NCBI GenBank assembly: GCA_964457775.1
Contig: CAYWEW010000004.1
Location: 24,705-88,704 of the forward strand
Origin: an uncultured Candidatus Saccharibacteria bacterium
Lineage (GTDB): Bacteria > Patescibacteriota > Minisyncoccia > Phycocordibacterales > UBA5272
Direction: 5' to 3'
Length of the DNA: 64,000 bases
Shown here: in pieces, positions 25,749 to 54,821 of the stretch
Layout of the letters: every line of letters begins with the position of its first letter
Numbering within the stretch: the stretch's first letter is position 1
The notes under the pieces: model-generated
What the model was told of the DNA's origin: nothing
The model's input: the letters and a program-made list of their open reading frames with translations, nothing else
Database searches by the model: none
Translations under genes and position numbers: made by a program

Positions 25749-25770
25749 TAATTACTTTGTAGTATATAAC

Positions 25771-25800
25771 AAAACCCGAATCAATTAATTCGGGCTTTGT
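25771..25800 (-). terminator. Rho-independent terminator between the tRNA locus and murB
   Basis: CCCGAAT-caattaa-ATTCGGG flanked by A- and T-runs (works on either strand). Confidence 0.5.
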
Positions 25801-25806
25801 TATTTT

Positions 25807-25903
25807 GTGCGCGGTCCTGGATTCGCCTCTCGCATTGCTATGCTCGAAACCTACGTCCTCTCTTCGAGGACTGCGGCCCGCGGTTCGAATCCAGGACCGC
25901 ATT
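25807..25903 (-). repeat. tRNA-trailing structured element, degenerate copy A
   Basis: 15-bp terminal inverted repeat GCGGTCCTGGATTCG...CGAATCCAGGACCGC (acceptor-like plus T-stem-like). Internal GTCCTC-tcttc-GAGGAC hairpin. Not a canonical tRNA. Confidence 0.4.
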
Positions 25904-25940: not shown

Positions 25941-26068
25941 TTTTATTGCTGTGCGCGAACCAAGATTCGGTCACCTCGTCTCGTTTCAAGATTACTTGAA
26001 ACAGGAGACTCCTCGACCCCTATTCGAATCTTGATGGAAATGACGCAGGTCATTTCCTGTTCGCGCAC
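25941..26068 (-). repeat. tRNA-trailing structured element, copy B (downstream of tRNA-Ile)
   Basis: The acceptor strands GCGCGAA/TTCGCGC are identical to tRNA-Ile. H1 hairpin GGAAATGAC-CTGC-GTCATTTCC. P1 CAAGATTCG/CGAATCTTG encloses AATAGGGGTCGAGGAG and a TTTCAAG-taat-CTTGAAA hairpin. Confidence 0.55.
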
Positions 26069-26113
26069 AGAATACAAAAAGCTAAGGATACTTCCTTAGC
26101 TTTTTGTATTCTG

Positions 26114-26186
26114 TGCGCGAACCAAGATTCGAACTTGGGACCGCTCGAGTATCAGTCGAGTGCTCTACCAGCTGAGCTATTCGCGC
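26114..26186 (-). tRNA. tRNA-Ile (anticodon GAT)
   Basis: Manual fold. Acceptor GCGCGAA/TTCGCGC, D-arm GCTC-AGCTGGTA-GAGC, anticodon loop CTGATAC, T-arm CCAAG-TTCGAAT-CTTGG, discriminator A. Confidence 0.8.
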
Positions 26187-49706: not shown

Positions 49707-51212
49707 CTACTTAACTTTGAATTGCTTACGTATTTCTTTAATTTGTTCTTTGTTTTTCTCTTCCATCTCTTCTTTTCCTGCTTTGCCTAGCAATCTGAGC
49801 TCAATATCTGATAATTTAATCAATTCTAGTGCGCGTTTATCTAGATATTCTTCAGTATTTTTCTCTGGATTATCAAGCACTTCGTCGAATAATGCATGTA
49901 AAACAAAGCCAATCTTCGGCCCAGCCGTTTCTTGTGTAACGTCCATGATTCGTTTCCCGTCAGTTTTTAGCATTTTTAGTGTAACTGGATCCTGTATCGC
50001 TTGTTCTACCATTGATTCATACATTCTCAGTCTATATGGCTCTTCTTTTGGCCTTCCAGTGCCCACTCTGTCGCAAATGCGTAGATTGATCAAATCCCAT
50101 ATATTATCCTTGCCTACGTTCGTAATTAGGCGTCTAACAGCTGATATAGTTATCTGCTCAGTGTCGGAAAAGAACATATGCCAACGCACGAACATGGACA
50201 CTCTGTCTGTCATCTCTTTTGGAAACTTTAGTCGCTCCAATATTTCACGTGAAACACGCCCACCAACAACATCGTGGCCATAAAATGTATAATCTCCTTT
50301 CTCTTTTGAGAAACGGCGTGTTTCTGGCTTGGAAATGTCGTGTAACACTGCTGACAAACGTATATGTAACGGCCACTTCTTATCAGCGGCATGCTGTAAT
50401 GTGCGAAGATTGTGCTCCCAAACATCGAAACTGTGAGCCTGATTCTGCATAACCCCTATTCCACGCTCTAATTCTGGCACCACATATTTCAAAATATCCA
50501 CGTCTTTCATGATAACAATACCCCTCATCGGGAAATCAGTCATCAAAAGCTTGATAAATTCATCTTTTATCCTTTCACATGAAACGTTTCGCAAAAGATG
50601 GGCGTTTCTCTCGATACTTTCACGTGTAACGCTATCAATATCAAAGTCCAATTGGCTCATAAGTCTAATTCCTCTCATAAGTCGTAAAGCATCTTCGTTG
50701 AAACGCACATCTGGATTGCCGACCGCTCTTATGATTTTCTTTTGTATATCTAACTGTCCTTCGAAAGGATCGATTATTTCTCCAGTCATTGGATTGTAGG
50801 CAATGGCGTTACACGTGAAATCTCGACGCTTCAAATCATCTTCTATGTCCTTGCTCCACTTCACTTCATCTGGATGTCTGTTGTCAGAATATGTGGTTTC
50901 TAAACGATATGGTGTAACTTCAACAATCTTAACCGTTTCATCACTGCAAGCGGGTAAATTCTCCTCCCCACAAGTGACAACCCCTACGGTGCCATAAGTA
51001 TTTTCATAAAAAGTCTTTGGAAATAAGGCGATTATTTCCTCTGGGGTGGCGTTTGTTGTAATATCAAAATCTTTTGGTTTATTCCCCATAATTAAATCAC
51101 GAACACAGCCACCAACAAGAAACGCTTCGAATGAGGCGTTTTGAAGCACAGCAAGTACCATTGTTACTTCTTTTGGTATTCCTGTCCCTATTTTTTGCTG
51201 TATTTGTGTCAT
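49707..51212 (-). CDS. cca: CCA-adding tRNA nucleotidyltransferase with HD domain
   Basis: GGCVRDLIMG..DFDITT polymerase-beta head. HD motif HSFDVWEH...LLHDISK. Confidence 0.8.
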   Translation of the reverse strand: MTQIQQKIGTGIPKEVTMVLAVLQNASFEAFLVGGCVRDLIMGNKPKDFDITTNATPEEIIALFPKTFYENTYGTVGVVTCGEENLPACSDETVKIVEVTPYRLETTYSDNRHPDEVKWSKDIEDDLKRRDFTCNAIAYNPMTGEIIDPFEGQLDIQKKIIRAVGNPDVRFNEDALRLMRGIRLMSQLDFDIDSVTRESIERNAHLLRNVSCERIKDEFIKLLMTDFPMRGIVIMKDVDILKYVVPELERGIGVMQNQAHSFDVWEHNLRTLQHAADKKWPLHIRLSAVLHDISKPETRRFSKEKGDYTFYGHDVVGGRVSREILERLKFPKEMTDRVSMFVRWHMFFSDTEQITISAVRRLITNVGKDNIWDLINLRICDRVGTGRPKEEPYRLRMYESMVEQAIQDPVTLKMLKTDGKRIMDVTQETAGPKIGFVLHALFDEVLDNPEKNTEEYLDKRALELIKLSDIELRLLGKAGKEEMEEKNKEQIKEIRKQFKVK

Positions 51213-51242
51213 AGATTGTGTTAATATACCCTTTGTAAATAA

Positions 51243-51314
51243 GCTTCCGTAGTGAAATGGATATCACAACGGTCTTCGGAACCGTCGTTCTGGGTTCGAA
51301 TCCTAGCGGAAGCA
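51243..51314 (+). tRNA. tRNA-Arg (anticodon TCG)
   Basis: Manual fold. Acceptor GCTTCCG/CGGAAGC, anticodon loop CTTCGGA, T-arm CTGGG-TTCGAAT-CCTAG. Confidence 0.75.
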
Positions 51315-51520
51315 CAAAAATGTGAGTGAAACGAGTATTTTTGTGCTTCCGCAGAAAGTGACCTGCGTCACTTTCGTTAGGATTCGAATGAAAAACCGGT
51401 ACACGAGATTCGCGGAGCGAATACTTGTCGGTTTTTCCGGGGTAGCGAAACAATATTTTTATCGAGTCCGTAGGACGAGCTGAAAAATATATGTTTGGTG
51501 ACCGAGTCCTAGCAAATCCC
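51315..51520 (+). repeat. tRNA-trailing structured element, copy C (after tRNA-Arg)
   Basis: Inverted repeat GGAAGCACAAAAAT...TATTTTTGTGCTTCC regenerates the tRNA 3' end. H1 GAAAGTGAC-CTGC-GTCACTTTC. GGATTCGAATGAAAAACCGGTACAC. CTTGTCGGTTTTTCCGGGGTAGCGA. GGTGACCGAGTCC. Confidence 0.5.
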
Positions 51521-51964
51521 TACCCCTCCCAAATTGTACCACCCTCCCTCATTTTATTTAGTGACTACTCCACTTTCTTCGTTCCCTGTTTTTATAAATT
51601 GCTGTGACTGCAATTACGGCCATTACTCCAAGTAGAATATAAATTATTCTTAATGATGAAGTTTTAATGTATGTTTTTCCTGGTCCACAAGCAGAACTAG
51701 GTGTTTTGTTTGTATGAATAAGTGTGTACTCATCTATGTTTGTGTAAACTGGACCAAGTAAATTAGTCTTAATTATCAAGTCTTTTGCTTCAAACTTCAT
51801 TGGTGGTAATAATGATGGGGAGCATGCACTAGCAACGTTTATTTGAAGAAGTATTAAGGACAATATAATTAATGGTGATATTACTTTATGGGACATGGTT
51901 ATTTATAAATAATAACACATAATACGCTTTGTTGTAGAACGTTTTACGGAGAATCGGTCACCAC

Positions 51965-52171
51965 TACGGCTCGCTTTAAAAAGCTTTGCTTTTCTCATCT
52001 CGCACGTAGTCGCGACCCCGGGAAAAACCGACAAGCAATTCATTCAAAAAATTAATGACCCCTATTTTTTGATTGAATTCTTGTGTACCGGTTTTTCGTT
52101 CGATTCTCCACAGACATGTCGCAGGTCATGTCTTTACACCACACAAAATACTCACTACGTTCCTATTTTAG
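51965..52171 (-). repeat. tRNA-trailing structured element, copy G (after tRNA-Gly-GCC)
   Basis: Collinear with copy C. H1 AGACATGAC-CTGC-GACATGTCT. GGAGAATCGAACGAAAAACCGGTACAC. AATAGGGGTC. CTTGTCGGTTTTTCCCGGGGTCGCGAC. Confidence 0.5.
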
Positions 52172-52242
52172 TGCGGCGTAGGAGAATCGAACTCCTGTCT
52201 CAACCTTGGCAAGGTCGTGTTCTACCACTAAACCAACACCGC
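52172..52242 (-). tRNA. tRNA-Gly (anticodon GCC)
   Basis: Manual fold. Acceptor GCGGTGT/ACGCCGC, anticodon loop TTGCCAA, T-arm AGGAG-TTCGATT-CTCCT. Confidence 0.75.
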
Positions 52243-52550
52243 ATTGAGAGCAATTGTAACACGACAAAAGCATAATGAAAAGATGTGATTCTAAGAAAGC
52301 GTTATATACTAAACACTAGGCGTTTCTTGTGAAAAGGTCATGTTGACAACATATAGAAATCTGGGGATAAACCTGTGAGTAGTGGGTATAACGGACATAC
52401 AAATTACTCTAGGTCAAATCAATTATGCTATGGCCTTTATACCAAAAAAGACTTGTTAAATATAGGTTTTTTAAGGTCAGAGACTTTTAATTAGACAAAT
52501 AAAATAAGGACATCTGTTTCACGTGAAACGAATCAAATATATAGTAAATT

Positions 52551-52940
52551 ATGGCAGAACATAATGAAATTGGAAAAATTGGAGAGAATATAACAAAAAC
52601 GTTTCTTATGAAACACGGTTTTTCTGTTGTTGATATAAACTATAGGACCAAATATGGGGAAATTGACATTATAGCTAAAAAAGACAACGTAGTTAGATTT
52701 GTTGAGGTTAAGAGTGTGAAAGTCAGAGACTTTGAGAGTATTAGTAACTTGGCAGTGAAGCCAGAGGACAATTTAACAAATGACAAATGGTCAAAACTTG
52801 TTGTTTCATGCGAAACGTATTTGAAACATAAAAATATTTCACATGAAACTAAATGGCAGATTGATCTTGCTTGTGTTTATATTAATACTGAAATAAGGGA
52901 GGGGAAGGTGGTGTTGATGGAGAATGTGAGTAGGGGGTAA
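52551..52940 (+). CDS. yraN: YraN/UPF0102 family endonuclease-like protein
   Basis: GENITKTFLMKHGFSVVDINYRTKYGEIDIIAKKDNVVRFVEVKS. Confidence 0.6.
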   Translation: MAEHNEIGKIGENITKTFLMKHGFSVVDINYRTKYGEIDIIAKKDNVVRFVEVKSVKVRDFESISNLAVKPEDNLTNDKWSKLVVSCETYLKHKNISHETKWQIDLACVYINTEIREGKVVLMENVSRG

Positions 52941-53018
52941 TGAAAGTTTGATTGATTACTATAACTACATGCATATTTCAGAATATATGCTAGAATGTTC
53001 AATACGTTTACTTAATAT

Positions 53019-53091
53019 CGGAATGTGGTGTAACGGCTAACATCCCTGGTTTGGGACCAGGTGACTCCGGGTTCGAATCCCGGCATTCCGA
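53019..53091 (+). tRNA. tRNA-Pro (anticodon TGG)
   Basis: Manual fold. Acceptor CGGAATG/CATTCCG, anticodon loop TTTGGGA, T-arm CCGGG-TTCGAAT-CCCGG. Confidence 0.75.
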
Positions 53092-53245
53092 CAAATTGTA
53101 AAATCACACTTGTAATCAAGTGTGATTTTACTTTGGAGGATGCAGTGAGTGAACTGCTTCACTCACGTCGGCGATTCGAATAGGGGTCGCGAGAGCTATA
53201 TTTCGAGCACGCGAGAAATAGACCTTGTGACCGAATCCCGGCATG
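53092..53245 (+). repeat. tRNA-trailing structured element, copy D (after tRNA-Pro)
   Basis: Hairpin AAAATCACACTTG-taatc-AAGTGTGATTTT. H1 GTGAGTGAA-CTGC-TTCACTCAC. P1 GATTCG/CGAATC encloses AATAGGGGTCG. The 3' end CCGAATCCCGGCAT copies the tRNA-Pro T-stem/acceptor. Confidence 0.5.
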
Positions 53246-53266
53246 ACTATATGCTAAACTTGATTA

Positions 53267-53497
53267 ATGAATACACCACAAACAGGGGAGATATGGCAAC
53301 ATTATAAAACGAAAGGGGAATATGAAATTATTGGTCTTGGTCAACTACAAACAAAAGTAGAGTCTCTTGATATGAAAGAGTGTGTTATTTATAAATCACC
53401 AGCTGGCACACTGTGGGCACGACCACTGGCTGATTTTGTAGAAGATATTAAGAATGAAGAAGGGGAGATGACACCAAGATTTAAAAAAGTAAGATAA
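53267..53497 (+). CDS. DUF1653-like small protein
   Basis: GEIWQHYKTKGEYEIIG...LWARPLADF pattern. Confidence 0.45.
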   Translation: MNTPQTGEIWQHYKTKGEYEIIGLGQLQTKVESLDMKECVIYKSPAGTLWARPLADFVEDIKNEEGEMTPRFKKVR

Positions 53498-53512
53498 AAG
53501 AAAAAGACGTCG

Positions 53513-54076
53513 TTAGACGTCTTTTGCAAGAAGGTATTTCAAGCAATCTTCACAATATGGGGATTCTCTTTTGTATCTGGAAGAGGCTCTTTTAGTCCAT
53601 ATCGAATCAGACTCATCTTCACTCATTACACAATTGTTTAGGCAGTGACCTGTGCCGTTAGTACTAATACTTAGTCGGGCGCGATGCTTATTTATTAAAC
53701 CCATTGAATGACCCAGCTCGTGCAGGATTAAGTCCCAAACTTTTGCAGACCATTTCATGGAGTTGTTTCTAGGAATATCTTTTACGCCTATCACACACCT
53801 GTCGGGTAATGATAGGCCAAAAACTCTTTTTCTTCTCCACGTTAGATTCGCATTAACAATATAAAAGGTAAAACCTTTACAAAACATATGTACTTTTCTT
53901 TGAAAAATTACTGATGTTGGTACTGTTTCCCTTTCAGAAAGAATGGAGAGATCTTCATTTGACTCAACTGAGTACGTTACGTCAGTGAATATTTTTCTCA
54001 AATCTCTGACAACTCTGCGAATAACCTTGTTTGTGCCGTGTGGGACGAATGGATCTAAAACGAAACGAATGTACAT
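53513..54076 (-). CDS. archaemetzincin-like zinc metalloprotease (M54-type)
   Basis: HELGHSMGLINKH plus GHCLNNCVM and CEDC cysteine cluster. Confidence 0.55.
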   Translation of the reverse strand: MYIRFVLDPFVPHGTNKVIRRVVRDLRKIFTDVTYSVESNEDLSILSERETVPTSVIFQRKVHMFCKGFTFYIVNANLTWRRKRVFGLSLPDRCVIGVKDIPRNNSMKWSAKVWDLILHELGHSMGLINKHRARLSISTNGTGHCLNNCVMSEDESDSIWTKRASSRYKRESPYCEDCLKYLLAKDV

Positions 54077-54174
54077 GATACCCTCCCTTTATTGTTTCTA
54101 TTAATATACTATCAGAATTTTATACTAATCAAAACTAGAAAAGTCTAATCAAATATGATAGGATATATTTCACA

Positions 54175-54245
54175 AGCGGTGTTGGTTTAGTGGTAGAATG
54201 CCTGCCTTCCAAGCAGGAGACAAGAGTTCGATTCTCTTACGCCGC
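54175..54245 (+). tRNA. tRNA-Gly (anticodon TCC)
   Basis: Manual fold. Acceptor GCGGTGT/ACGCCGC, anticodon loop CTTCCAA, T-arm AAGAG-TTCGATT-CTCTT. Confidence 0.75.
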
Positions 54246-54442
54246 ACAGAAATATAAAATCCTGAAACAAATTGTTTCAGGATTTTATATTTCTGTGCGG
54301 CGTAAGCAAGACAACTGCTTGTCTTGCATAGAGAATCGAATAGGGGTCGAGGAGCCATTTGTTTCTTGTAATCAAGAAACTGGCGAGGTGACCGATTCTC
54401 TTGAAGACTTATTTGTCGGTTTTTCCCGAGGTCGCGACTAGG
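54246..54442 (+). repeat. tRNA-trailing structured element, copy E (after tRNA-Gly-TCC)
   Basis: 30-bp inverted repeat regenerating the tRNA 3' end. H1 GCAAGACAA-CTGC-TTGTCTTGC. P1 AGAGAATCG/CGATTCTCT encloses AATAGGGGTCGAGGAG and TTTCTTG-taat-CAAGAAA. TTTGTCGGTTTTTCCCGAGGTCGCGAC. Confidence 0.55.
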
Positions 54443-54575
54443 AGTGTTTTGTGAATAACAAAGTTATGAAACAAAACACTCAAAGTAATGACCGATTCTC
54501 TTACAATCGTTTGTCCAATTCTGTATTTCTTTATATAATACCCAAAGAAGTTCAACTACCCCCAAGGAGAAAATC

Positions 54576-54821
54576 ATGCCGTGCGAATGCAAGTGCCAAT
54601 GTTCTTGTCATCATAAGGATATTCCTTTTTCGGAGATGTCGAAAGCAGATCAAGCAAAACTGAAGAGGGAAGCAGGTTACGGTTTATCAAGAAAGCTTTT
54701 GGGTAAAGAGAGTCTGGCTCATCGTGAAAAACTAGACCACTCTCTATCATTAGATGAATCAAGAAGAAGACAAACACAGCGAGCTTTTGAAGCCTTTAAC
54801 GATAGTTTCGGCAAAGGATAA
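54576..54821 (+). CDS. small protein with Cys-rich N-terminus (MPCECKCQCSCHH)
   Basis: AAGGAGAAAATC RBS. Terminator at 54836-54868. Confidence 0.4.
   Translation: MPCECKCQCSCHHKDIPFSEMSKADQAKLKREAGYGLSRKLLGKESLAHREKLDHSLSLDESRRRQTQRAFEAFNDSFGKG

Follow-up and report, generated by a model that had tools for sequence, protein, structure and literature searches.

Small self-complementary modules behind tRNA genes of Candidate Phyla Radiation bacteria look like an undescribed, tRNA-specific insertion element

In integron attC sites and in the attP(+) site of the CTX phage, a single DNA strand folds and imperfectly complementary arms rebuild a duplex recombination site. Such a site combines a conserved inner box with bulged or extrahelical bases and a terminal hairpin that varies, and mismatches mark one of the two strands. 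REP/BIME/REPIN repeats (RAYT) and IS200/IS605-type elements are short, protein-less palindromic repeats that are intergenic, lie downstream of genes and are mobilised in trans; some copies act as terminators, and short 'guide' bases next to the hairpin pair with the flanking cleavage or target sequence. Where tyrosine integrases target tRNA genes, they leave the tRNA 3' end, from the T loop onwards, as direct repeats; such copies pile up in tandem at one tRNA, and the end that was displaced decays. Non-coding RNAs linked to tRNAs, among them 3' external transcribed spacers and mascRNA-type tRNA-like elements, and structured 3' trailers stand directly behind a tRNA on the same strand and, like intrinsic terminators, form stable hairpins. 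Here, we describe a non-coding unit of 150-250 nt which recalls each of these systems and follows the tRNA genes in a 64-kb stretch of DNA (the window; contig CAYWEW010000004.1, positions 24,705 to 88,704) from an uncultured Candidatus Saccharibacteria bacterium. It is a conserved, modular, self-complementary element that is tied to tRNA 3' ends and occurs at most, not all, tRNAs. The units are best explained as a family of small, protein-less, highly self-complementary DNA modules at the tRNA 3' ends of a clade (Paceibacteria/Nomurabacteria-like) of the Candidate Phyla Radiation (CPR). They resemble a hitherto undescribed insertion element specific to tRNAs more than an ordinary trailer RNA; literature searches found no description of this architecture.

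All five tRNA genes of the window (Ile, Arg, Gly(GCC), Pro and Gly(TCC), identified with ARAGORN and Rfam) bear one common unit architecture, termed type A, which contains no open reading frame (ORF). The last 19 nt of the tRNA form the first sense segment, S1. They are followed by a trailer hairpin that is either terminator-like or a mini hairpin; by AA, an antisense copy of the acceptor 3' strand plus trailer; by H2, a 9-bp hairpin with a CTGC loop; and by AT, an antisense copy of the T loop and the 3' strand of the T stem. Next comes the core, composed of TCGAA, a bulge TAGGG and the hairpin H4 (GTCGCG…TGTGAC), and finally S2, a second sense copy of the tRNA 3' end which invariably starts at T-loop position C56. 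Hence each unit is bracketed by direct copies, S1 in the intact tRNA and S2 after the unit. At 5/5 window tRNAs the T arm has an 11-nt reverse complement no more than 150 nt downstream; it is exact at Arg, Gly(GCC), Gly(TCC) and Ile and agrees at 10/12 positions at Pro. The Pro, Gly(TCC) and Ile units are simpler than the other two in that they lack an extra nested hairpin.

The units of tRNA-Arg and tRNA-Gly(GCC), which lie in opposite orientation with a separation of only 400 nt, had been noticed in an initial annotation of the sequence as two trailers built from four collinear modules. All four modules are present at the positions given there, and the proposal that two different tRNAs carry one homologous, collinear non-coding architecture was borne out. 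The first module, an inverted copy of the tRNA 3' end, corresponds to the hairpin H1. At Arg this is a 16-nt inverted repeat, 100% complementary and taking in the tRNA 3' end; at Gly(GCC) the pairing contains two G.T pairs and one bulge. In both units the trailer hairpin is a mini hairpin only. The second module is H2, for which a fixed CTGC loop had been claimed correctly in both copies, whereas the perfect 9-bp stem exists in the Arg copy and not in that of Gly(GCC) (Table 1). Modules three and four are exact in both copies, yet they are not separate modules: they pair with each other as the arms of a single hairpin (GAAAAACCG/CGGTTTTTC and ACRAG/CTTGT, the tip being variable), which is the extra hairpin nested in the core. 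What had gone unrecognised is that the trailer contains an antisense copy plus a second sense copy of the 3' end of its own tRNA. Nor is the feature particular to Arg and Gly(GCC): most tRNA genes share it, throughout the genome and across the clade. The closeness and opposite orientation of the two units would fit a recent local duplication of one trailer, a concern already voiced in the initial annotation, or a chance resemblance or assembly artefact. However, the unit-specific segments of each copy match its own tRNA, the variable hairpins differ, and the architecture was found at >100 sites in many independent assemblies and studies. This explanation is therefore refuted and retains practically no probability.

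A pattern search of a collection of species-representative genomes with the plain core yielded 82 stretches ('loci', 569 kb). With one exception all of them are metagenome-assembled genomes (MAGs) of the CPR, labelled Nomurabacteria, Paceibacterota or Parcubacteria and in some cases Saccharibacteria or Gracilibacteria. The only match outside the CPR (Marinobacterium, locus L016, 1146-1215) is G+C-rich, has no tRNA nearby and no unit architecture and was discarded as a chance match. Sixty-two of the 91 pattern matches are located ≤130 nt downstream of a same-strand tRNA, and 62/62 of these show the full architecture with tRNA-specific segments. A covariance model (R1) was built from 48 of the 62 units; the Arg and Gly(GCC) copies are not in it, and the alignment is biased by the omission of 13 units with an imperfect H2. 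In the window, R1 matched exactly the five tRNA trailers (86.7, 85.4, 78.5, 38.6 and 26.0 bits). In the 82 loci it gave 142 matches, of which 98 are found ≤150 nt and 14 at 151-450 nt downstream of a same-strand tRNA; the remainder comprises 12 matches at locus edges and 18 'orphans'. No hidden tRNA was found upstream of the orphan units; there are instead cargo genes and then a diverged tRNA 3' end. Altogether, 102/162 tRNAs in the loci have a unit, and 15 amino-acid identities are represented, so that the modules do stand beside tRNAs in related genomes, as the initial annotation had expected. The extra hairpin of the Arg/Gly(GCC) type recurs at the same position in L024, L026, L048 and L076. 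Viral contigs, phage records and plasmid records were also searched and contained no unit copies.

Type C, a second core family that is not related to the first, reads TCGAA / CCGCGGGCCGCA - hairpin - GTAGGTTTCGAG - hairpin - CGAGRGG / CGA and was found in 45 metagenome stretches, in 31/45 of which a same-strand tRNA ends 16-72 nt upstream. Its logic is that of type A: antisense arm, core, sense arm.

When the unit is folded as a single strand, S is predicted to pair with AT and AA in a Y-shaped three-way junction that rebuilds the acceptor/T-arm duplex. In the predicted fold, H2 branches exactly at the junction of T stem and acceptor stem (65/66) and the pairing of S1 with AT and AA is continuous. 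An AT:S2 helix, a 7-nt bulge (AATAGGG), the conserved H4 base and a variable tip are the further elements. Folding of single-stranded DNA gave z-scores of -10.2 for the Arg unit and -8.5 for the Gly(GCC) unit. In the 48-unit alignment 91.5% of the cells pair, compared with 74% in shuffles and ~40% when the partner columns are slid. Double changes were seen in 21/31 pairs (304 cells), a level reached by 0/500 shuffles, which upholds the earlier observation that the stems differ in sequence and nevertheless remain paired. In relatives all 9 H2 pairs covary, and one-sided changes in H2 amount to 0/432 cells. Across the 62 units, the H2 stem is nearly invariant at positions 1, 3 and 8 (G, A and A), while positions 2, 4, 5, 6-7 and 9 alternate between few states in free combination, every change being compensated on the opposite arm.

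Invariant junction nucleotides together with covarying stems are a classic signature of non-coding RNA, and the unit always lies on the same strand as the tRNA and immediately downstream of it. A co-transcribed or read-through structured 3' trailer or small RNA has therefore to be considered. In such an RNA, the pairing partner of AA and AT would be the 3' half of the tRNA or S2 as a decoy. The RNA might have a role in 3'-end processing (e.g. by RNase III acting on the H1 duplex), read-through quality control or tRNA regulation, or it might be a new ribozyme or guide RNA. An RNA fold z-score of -8.9 is consistent with this. The same applies to two G.T(U) pairs that are fixed at the H4 base, to fixed U.G pairs and tandem G.A in type C, all of which are confined to the tRNA-sense strand, to the type C loop GAAGA/GAGGA, which resembles GNR(N)A pentaloops, and to the counts in type C hairpin 1 (hp1; G.U 7, A.C 0). 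These fixed wobbles and motifs mark the tRNA-sense strand as the folded strand, which suits single-stranded DNA as well as RNA.

The remaining substitutions do not look like those of an RNA. H2 has 484 Watson-Crick, 4 G.U and 4 A.C pairs among 496; the corresponding G.U and A.C numbers are 22 and 15 in H3 and, in a gapped count, 25 and 14 in H1. By comparison, the acceptor and T stems of the 62 adjacent tRNAs, taken as a control, contain 48 G.U and 1 A.C among 744 pairs. G.U thus makes up ~1% of the variable unit helices, about equal to A.C, as against 6.5% in the adjoining tRNA stems, where A.C is almost nil. G.U pairs that are common and far exceed A.C, as in an RNA, were found solely in the fixed wobbles of the H4 base and in hp1. 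Among the loops, C(GAA)G occurs 45 times, CGAAAG (GNRA-type) 4 times and CTTCGG never, type A being without GNRA or UUCG loops. In our own scan a T-tract terminator-like hairpin was located between the tRNA and AA in 30/62 units and after S2 in 6/62; a stock terminator scanner run over 51100-54700 called no unit hairpin. Base-pair counts, loops and hairpin placement together indicate that the stems are maintained in Watson-Crick palindromic form and that a likely transcription stop often precedes the core. Furthermore, when tRNA and unit are folded as one RNA, the predicted minimum-energy structure takes up the tRNA 3' half and destroys the acceptor and T arms. Only 63-75% of tRNAs have a unit, with gains, losses, truncations and duplications among relatives, and the acceptor part of S2 is frequently absent or decayed. 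An RNA-level role is in our judgement somewhat unlikely but, given the sense-strand features, a serious rival; the helices, the loops, the position of the T-tract hairpin ahead of the core and the predicted unfolding of the tRNA upon co-transcription all speak against the stable trailer RNA that the initial annotation had envisaged.

Comparison with Rfam 15 at gathering and permissive thresholds, for the window and 8 related loci, returned only tRNA above threshold; at E-values up to 10 the sole matches overlapping units were generic long hairpins (miRNA-type). Known self-cleaving ribozymes, H/ACA-like and T-box-like RNAs, a retroviral-type primer-binding site, a retron and tmRNA were dropped as candidates because there was no Rfam match, no CCA complement and no adjacent reverse transcriptase.

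The origin of the tRNA-specific segments can be read from positions at which the tRNA stems themselves contain G.U. There, the sequence of AA and AT agrees with the 3'-strand complement at 44/49 sites and with the 5' strand at 2/49. Hence the unit is not a degenerate duplicated tRNA, and a degenerate second tRNA gene, in which AA and AT would be 5'-strand copies, was ruled out. The S1/S2 repeat has its left border fixed at C56 and a length of 9-50 nt. Its ends cluster at ~10 nt, equivalent to the AT-paired part, or at ~19-23 nt, equivalent to the parts paired with AT and AA, and the repeats reach up to 50 nt in tandem arrays. In three genomes, Lys-CTT units bear an AT of the Lys-TTT type, and in two genomes Gly-GCC units bear one of the Gly-TCC type, with S1 and S2 being of the local type in each case. 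This indicates that AT belongs to the unit and S to the site. In L017, tRNA-Pro (+) and tRNA-Gly(TCC) (-) converge and share one terminator-like hairpin that reads alike on both strands, so that the sequence past the hairpin is genuine antisense tRNA. A convergent pair of this kind could be the starting point for the antisense arm elsewhere. Models in which the inverted copy stems from breakage at a restriction site (T^CGA) or from a hairpin telomere do not account for the conserved cores and were rejected.

Units turn over faster than the genes that flank them. The Arg/Gly(GCC)/Pro/Gly(TCC) cluster is conserved, and among MAGs ~85% identical or less, orthologous tRNAs are filled, empty or associated with remnants. 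Presence and absence differ at Arg(TCG), Pro and Gly(TCC), and filled sites hold differing module types. The closest relative found, L044, is 85% identical to the window over 3.6 kb that include the flanking genes, tRNA-Arg and H1. The homology stops at 51390, the start of the extra hairpin, and the distal modules cannot be aligned; the two Arg H2 stems differ at 5/9 positions, all of them compensated. Truncated remnants and tandem or nested copies occur, and the types of trailer, H2, H4 base and tip, and extra stem combine almost without regard to tRNA identity or genome. In the tRNA-Glu unit of L051 the H2 loop carries a further nested insertion (…GCCACCTGCCGATGAGTACATCGCGCCGGGAGGCGTATAGC…), indicating that hairpins get inserted into hairpins.

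Some of this could arise with no dedicated machinery, through template switching at the terminator hairpin and the T-loop TTCGAA, ectopic gene conversion and quasi-palindrome correction. In its favour, each of the two turning points, at the trailer hairpin and at TTCGAA, coincides with a hairpin or palindrome, S2 has a variable right border, the stems show strict Watson-Crick pairing and no intermediates, and an older type C unit behind tRNA-Ile has stayed paired while drifting from the tRNA sequence. We consider this account improbable, as it explains neither the invariant junctions, the exact insertion of H2 at the 65/66 junction and the conservation across distant genomes nor the existence of two unrelated, equally organised core families.

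Much the same low probability attaches to the view that the units are attL/attR scars left by integration and excision of phages or islands, with S2 as the displaced original tRNA 3' end. The direct repeats are of the kind tyrosine integrases leave, and in six loci (L006, L035, L038, L071, L077 and L080) cargo is found between the tRNA and a displaced, diverged copy of its 3' end, which is followed by the unit. In addition, a contig from another sample (L083), of which positions 1-796 are 100% identical to 51375-52170 of the window, a stretch running from the UPF0102 gene up to the final base of tRNA-Gly(GCC), changes completely right at the end of this tRNA. Beyond it the sequence is unrelated, with a 146-aa ORF and then ..GGTGAC/TGACTCTTC; L083 is possibly a chimeric assembly because its coverage is low (~2.7x). 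With scars, however, one would not expect the same conserved core of 100 nt, together with covarying hairpins and an antisense target copy, to recur behind tRNAs of 15 identities in dozens of genomes. The units are moreover merely 150-250 nt long, no integrase lies inside them, and a crude regular expression detected no tyrosine-recombinase motif in the 82 loci or the window. By eye and from N-terminal sequence, the cargo candidates include a two-gene cytosine-methyltransferase (restriction-modification) pair, a DUF262-like protein and a large serine recombinase.

A crude regular expression found no HUH-Y (Y1) motif in ORFs of the window or loci. Serine-recombinase candidates emerged in 3 loci by clustering and additionally in L077, on the basis of N-terminal sequence or regular expression only. 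One such candidate of 532 aa, recognised by its N-terminal motif only and with homologues in 3 loci, lies at L033 2005-3603 (-), where it meets or overlaps the 3' end of tRNA-Leu(TAA); there is no unit at this site.

We tentatively favour, at a little short of an even chance, a module inserted at the DNA level, which is complementary to its target and duplicates it. Such a unit would recognise or retain its target through complementarity and enter at the T-loop TCGA, and the paired target segment would be duplicated, which is our proposed reason for the two length classes of S2. The folded single strand would rebuild the duplex form of its own target. Moving or copying would be the task of machinery encoded elsewhere, as we propose because no enzyme is encoded beside the unit. 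After insertion the stems would be kept as perfect palindromes at the DNA level, and as a side effect many units would give their tRNA gene a terminator-like hairpin that reads alike on both strands. Comparative patterns that argue for such a module are the association with the target, the flanking repeats, the differences in occupancy, an AT that travels with the unit and the second core family. The 3'-strand complementarity, DNA-palindrome helices, loops, hairpin placement, module recombination and lack of an Rfam match appear to point in the same direction.

Several points weigh against an insertion module. The sense-strand wobbles of the H4 base and the type C peculiarities (fixed U.G pairs with tandem G.A, GAAGA pentaloop, G.U excess in hp1) suit an RNA equally. 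Neighbour clustering, Pfam (148/316 representatives of the neighbour-ORF clusters scanned) and motif regular expressions revealed no recurrent recombinase or transposase near the units. Mobility itself is deduced from comparative patterns, and the combination of invariant junctions with very different stems within one genome looks like long-term purifying selection acting on a structured molecule and not like a recent burst of transposition. Finally, the insertion model does not account for the gain of matching antisense and sense segments for a new, unrelated tRNA.

In a variant that would give the complementarity an active part, the units would form a new class of homing element guided by nucleic acid or, alternatively, would be small RNAs of a new kind with a catalytic or guide function. 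The bipartite AA and AT, split by H2, would then be a 10-20-nt guide that recognises one particular tRNA gene, or its transcript, by pairing with the 3' end. The core junctions, invariant in type A and its long variant as well as in type C, would serve as the active centre or as a centre of protein binding, and this centre would insert, copy or cleave at T-loop position 55/56. We rate this as unlikely.

Against this background the logic of the units appears closest to that of folded single-strand recombination sites (integron attC, CTX phage attP) and of REP or IS200/IS605-type palindromic elements, and their position closest to that of the att repeats of tRNA-integrating islands, although by this comparison they fail the defining sequence and protein features of each. 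With attC and attP(+) they would share the rebuilt duplex, inner box, bulge, variable tip and strand-marking mismatches, and their outer 3' arm would also derive from the target after insertion. Unlike attC sites they have no RYYYAAC/GTTRRRY core sites, the conserved boxes being TCGAA-TAGGG-GTCGCG and TGTGAC-CGA, no IntI or Xer gene nearby and no arrays of ORF cassettes; cassettes between units were seen only in L071. Their arms are copies of tRNA 3' ends that differ from tRNA to tRNA, and the target is the T loop rather than attI or dif. With REP and IS200/IS605-type elements they share size, lack of protein, palindromic form, intergenic position and the pairing of hairpin-adjacent bases with the target, and they too would be mobilised in trans. 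In contrast to those elements, however, the unit consensus has no GTAG/CGTC head, no Y1 transposase motif was seen nearby, unit and target are complementary over 10-20 nt instead of 4, a duplicate of the target is present, stem sequences are highly variable within a genome and the association with tRNA 3' ends is strict. The units do not resemble miniature inverted-repeat transposable elements either: the duplication varies from 9 to 50 nt, copies in the same genome differ strongly in their stems, and neighbour clustering and the Pfam scan turned up no parent insertion sequence. Direct repeats from the T loop through the tRNA 3' end, tandem accumulation and decay of the displaced end are shared with att repeats of islands and phages, from which the short, gene-less, integrase-less units differ by their inverted target copy and conserved structured cores. 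Position, strand and stable hairpins, with a T-tract in about half of the units, recall trailer RNAs and terminators. Different from these are the missing Rfam match, helices without G.U, a structure that competes with the tRNA fold and the location of the bulk of the unit beyond the terminator-like hairpin.

If this interpretation is correct, most tRNA genes in a large clade of ultra-small bacteria would bear an undescribed element with an antisense and a second direct copy of its target. Recognition of a target through long base pairing, with no enzyme encoded alongside, would here have a natural example, and tRNA genes would be parasitised, or insulated and terminated, in a new way. The units explain odd 'partial tRNA' fragments and long palindromes beside tRNA genes in CPR genome bins, and they are markers of hot spots at which genomes rearrange. 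Two well-defined motifs, with dozens to hundreds of examples apiece, are also made available for tests as RNA or as single-stranded DNA.

Table 1. Coordinates of tRNA genes, unit parts and other features in the window and, in the last rows, of cargo islands in related loci.
Feature	Position	Strand	Remarks
tRNA-Ile(GAT)	26186..26113	minus	ARAGORN, Rfam
tRNA-Arg(TCG)	51243-51315	+	ARAGORN; Rfam tRNA 64.4 bits
tRNA-Gly(GCC)	52242..52171	minus	ARAGORN, Rfam
tRNA-Pro(TGG)	53019-53092	+	ARAGORN, Rfam
tRNA-Gly(TCC)	54176-54247	+	ARAGORN, Rfam
Arg S1	51297-51315	+	last 19 nt of tRNA, C56 to A73 plus C
Arg H1	51306..51352	+	51306-51321 pairs with AA 51337-51352; loop GTGAGTGAAACGAGT
Arg H2	51354..51375	+	perfect 9-bp stem, GAAAGTGAC-CTGC-GTCACTTTC; R1 model positions 3-24
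Arg AT	51378..51388	+	TAGGATTCGAA, exact reverse complement of tRNA-Arg positions 54-64
Arg extra nested hairpin	51390..51437	+	base GAAAAACCG/CGGTTTTTC, ACGAG/CTTGT, variable tip
Arg core hairpin H4	51439..51502	+	GGGGTAGCGAAAC, variable tip, GTTTGGTGAC
Arg S2	51503..51519	+	CGAGTCCTAGCAAATCC; 10 of first 11 nt match tRNA 3' end, decayed further on
Gly(GCC) S1	52171-52189	minus	tRNA 3' end
Gly(GCC) H1	52135..52176	minus	CCGCACTAAAATA (52164-52176) pairs with AA TATTTTGTGTGGTGTA (52135-52150)
Gly(GCC) H2	52112..52133	minus	AGACATGAC-CTGC-GACATGTCT; 8/9 positions paired, one A.A mismatch
Gly(GCC) AT	52098..52109	minus	GGAGAATCGAAC, 12-nt exact reverse complement of the tRNA's GTTCGATTCTCC; T-loop and T-stem antisense segment GGAGAATCGAA at 52099-52109, exact
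Gly(GCC) extra nested hairpin	52022..52097	minus	modules three and four; 47-nt variable tip
Gly(GCC) core hairpin H4	51957..52020	minus	CGGGGTCGCGAC, variable tip, GTGGTGAC
Gly(GCC) S2	51940..51956	minus	CGATTCTCCGTAAAACG; first 9 nt identical to S1
Pro unit	53093..53247	+	plain type A; R1 match 78.5 bits; 13-nt exact direct repeat
Pro terminator-like hairpin	53100-53134	+	
Pro AA	53135-53143	+	
Pro H2	53145-53166	+	
Pro AT	53169-53180	+	
Pro H4	53186-53231	+	
Pro S2	53232-53247	+	
Gly(TCC) unit	54248..54509	+	R1 match 85.4 bits; three direct copies
Gly(TCC) H1	54236-54306	+	long palindrome
Gly(TCC) H2	54307-54326	+	
Gly(TCC) AT	54330-54340	+	
Gly(TCC) H4	54346-54392	+	
Gly(TCC) S2	54393-54408	+	
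Gly(TCC) truncated second unit	54412-54492	+	ends in third copy S3, 54493-54509
Ile unit	25949..26112	minus	R1 match 86.7 bits
Ile H1	26059-26122	minus	30-bp perfect palindrome, overlaps tRNA end
Ile H2	26036-26057	minus	
Ile AT	26023-26033	minus	
Ile H4	25970-26017	minus	
Ile S2	25949-25969	minus	21-nt exact repeat of tRNA 3' end
Type C unit	25807..25900	minus	behind Ile unit, no tRNA directly upstream; antisense arm, CCGCGGGCCGCA, hairpin, GTAGGTTTCGAG, hairpin, CGAGAGG, sense arm
Terminator-like hairpin after type C unit	25768-25801	minus	
CCA-adding enzyme gene	49707-51212	-	PolyA_pol and HD domains; directly upstream of tRNA-Arg, divergent
Cargo island, L006	4427-6350		
Cargo island, L080	1156-3300	reverse	
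Cargo islands, L077, L035, L038, L071			

The arms of the type C unit in the window resemble the 3' end of tRNA-Ile, and the differences are compensated. This compensated drift behind tRNA-Ile suggests that pairing was kept after the match to the tRNA had been lost.

CCA is encoded in 0/5 window tRNA genes, each of which reads A73-C and then A or T. Their neighbours are housekeeping genes, namely those for the CCA-adding enzyme, RecJ, a UPF0102 protein and an M54-like peptidase. The motifs GCGAAGC and CGAG…CGAG recur at the hairpin tips of many units, for example in L029, L062, L081 and L082 and at H4 tips; GCGAAGC is well known as a DNA mini-hairpin of very high stability, and in CGAG…CGAG sheared G.A pairs can form in tandem.

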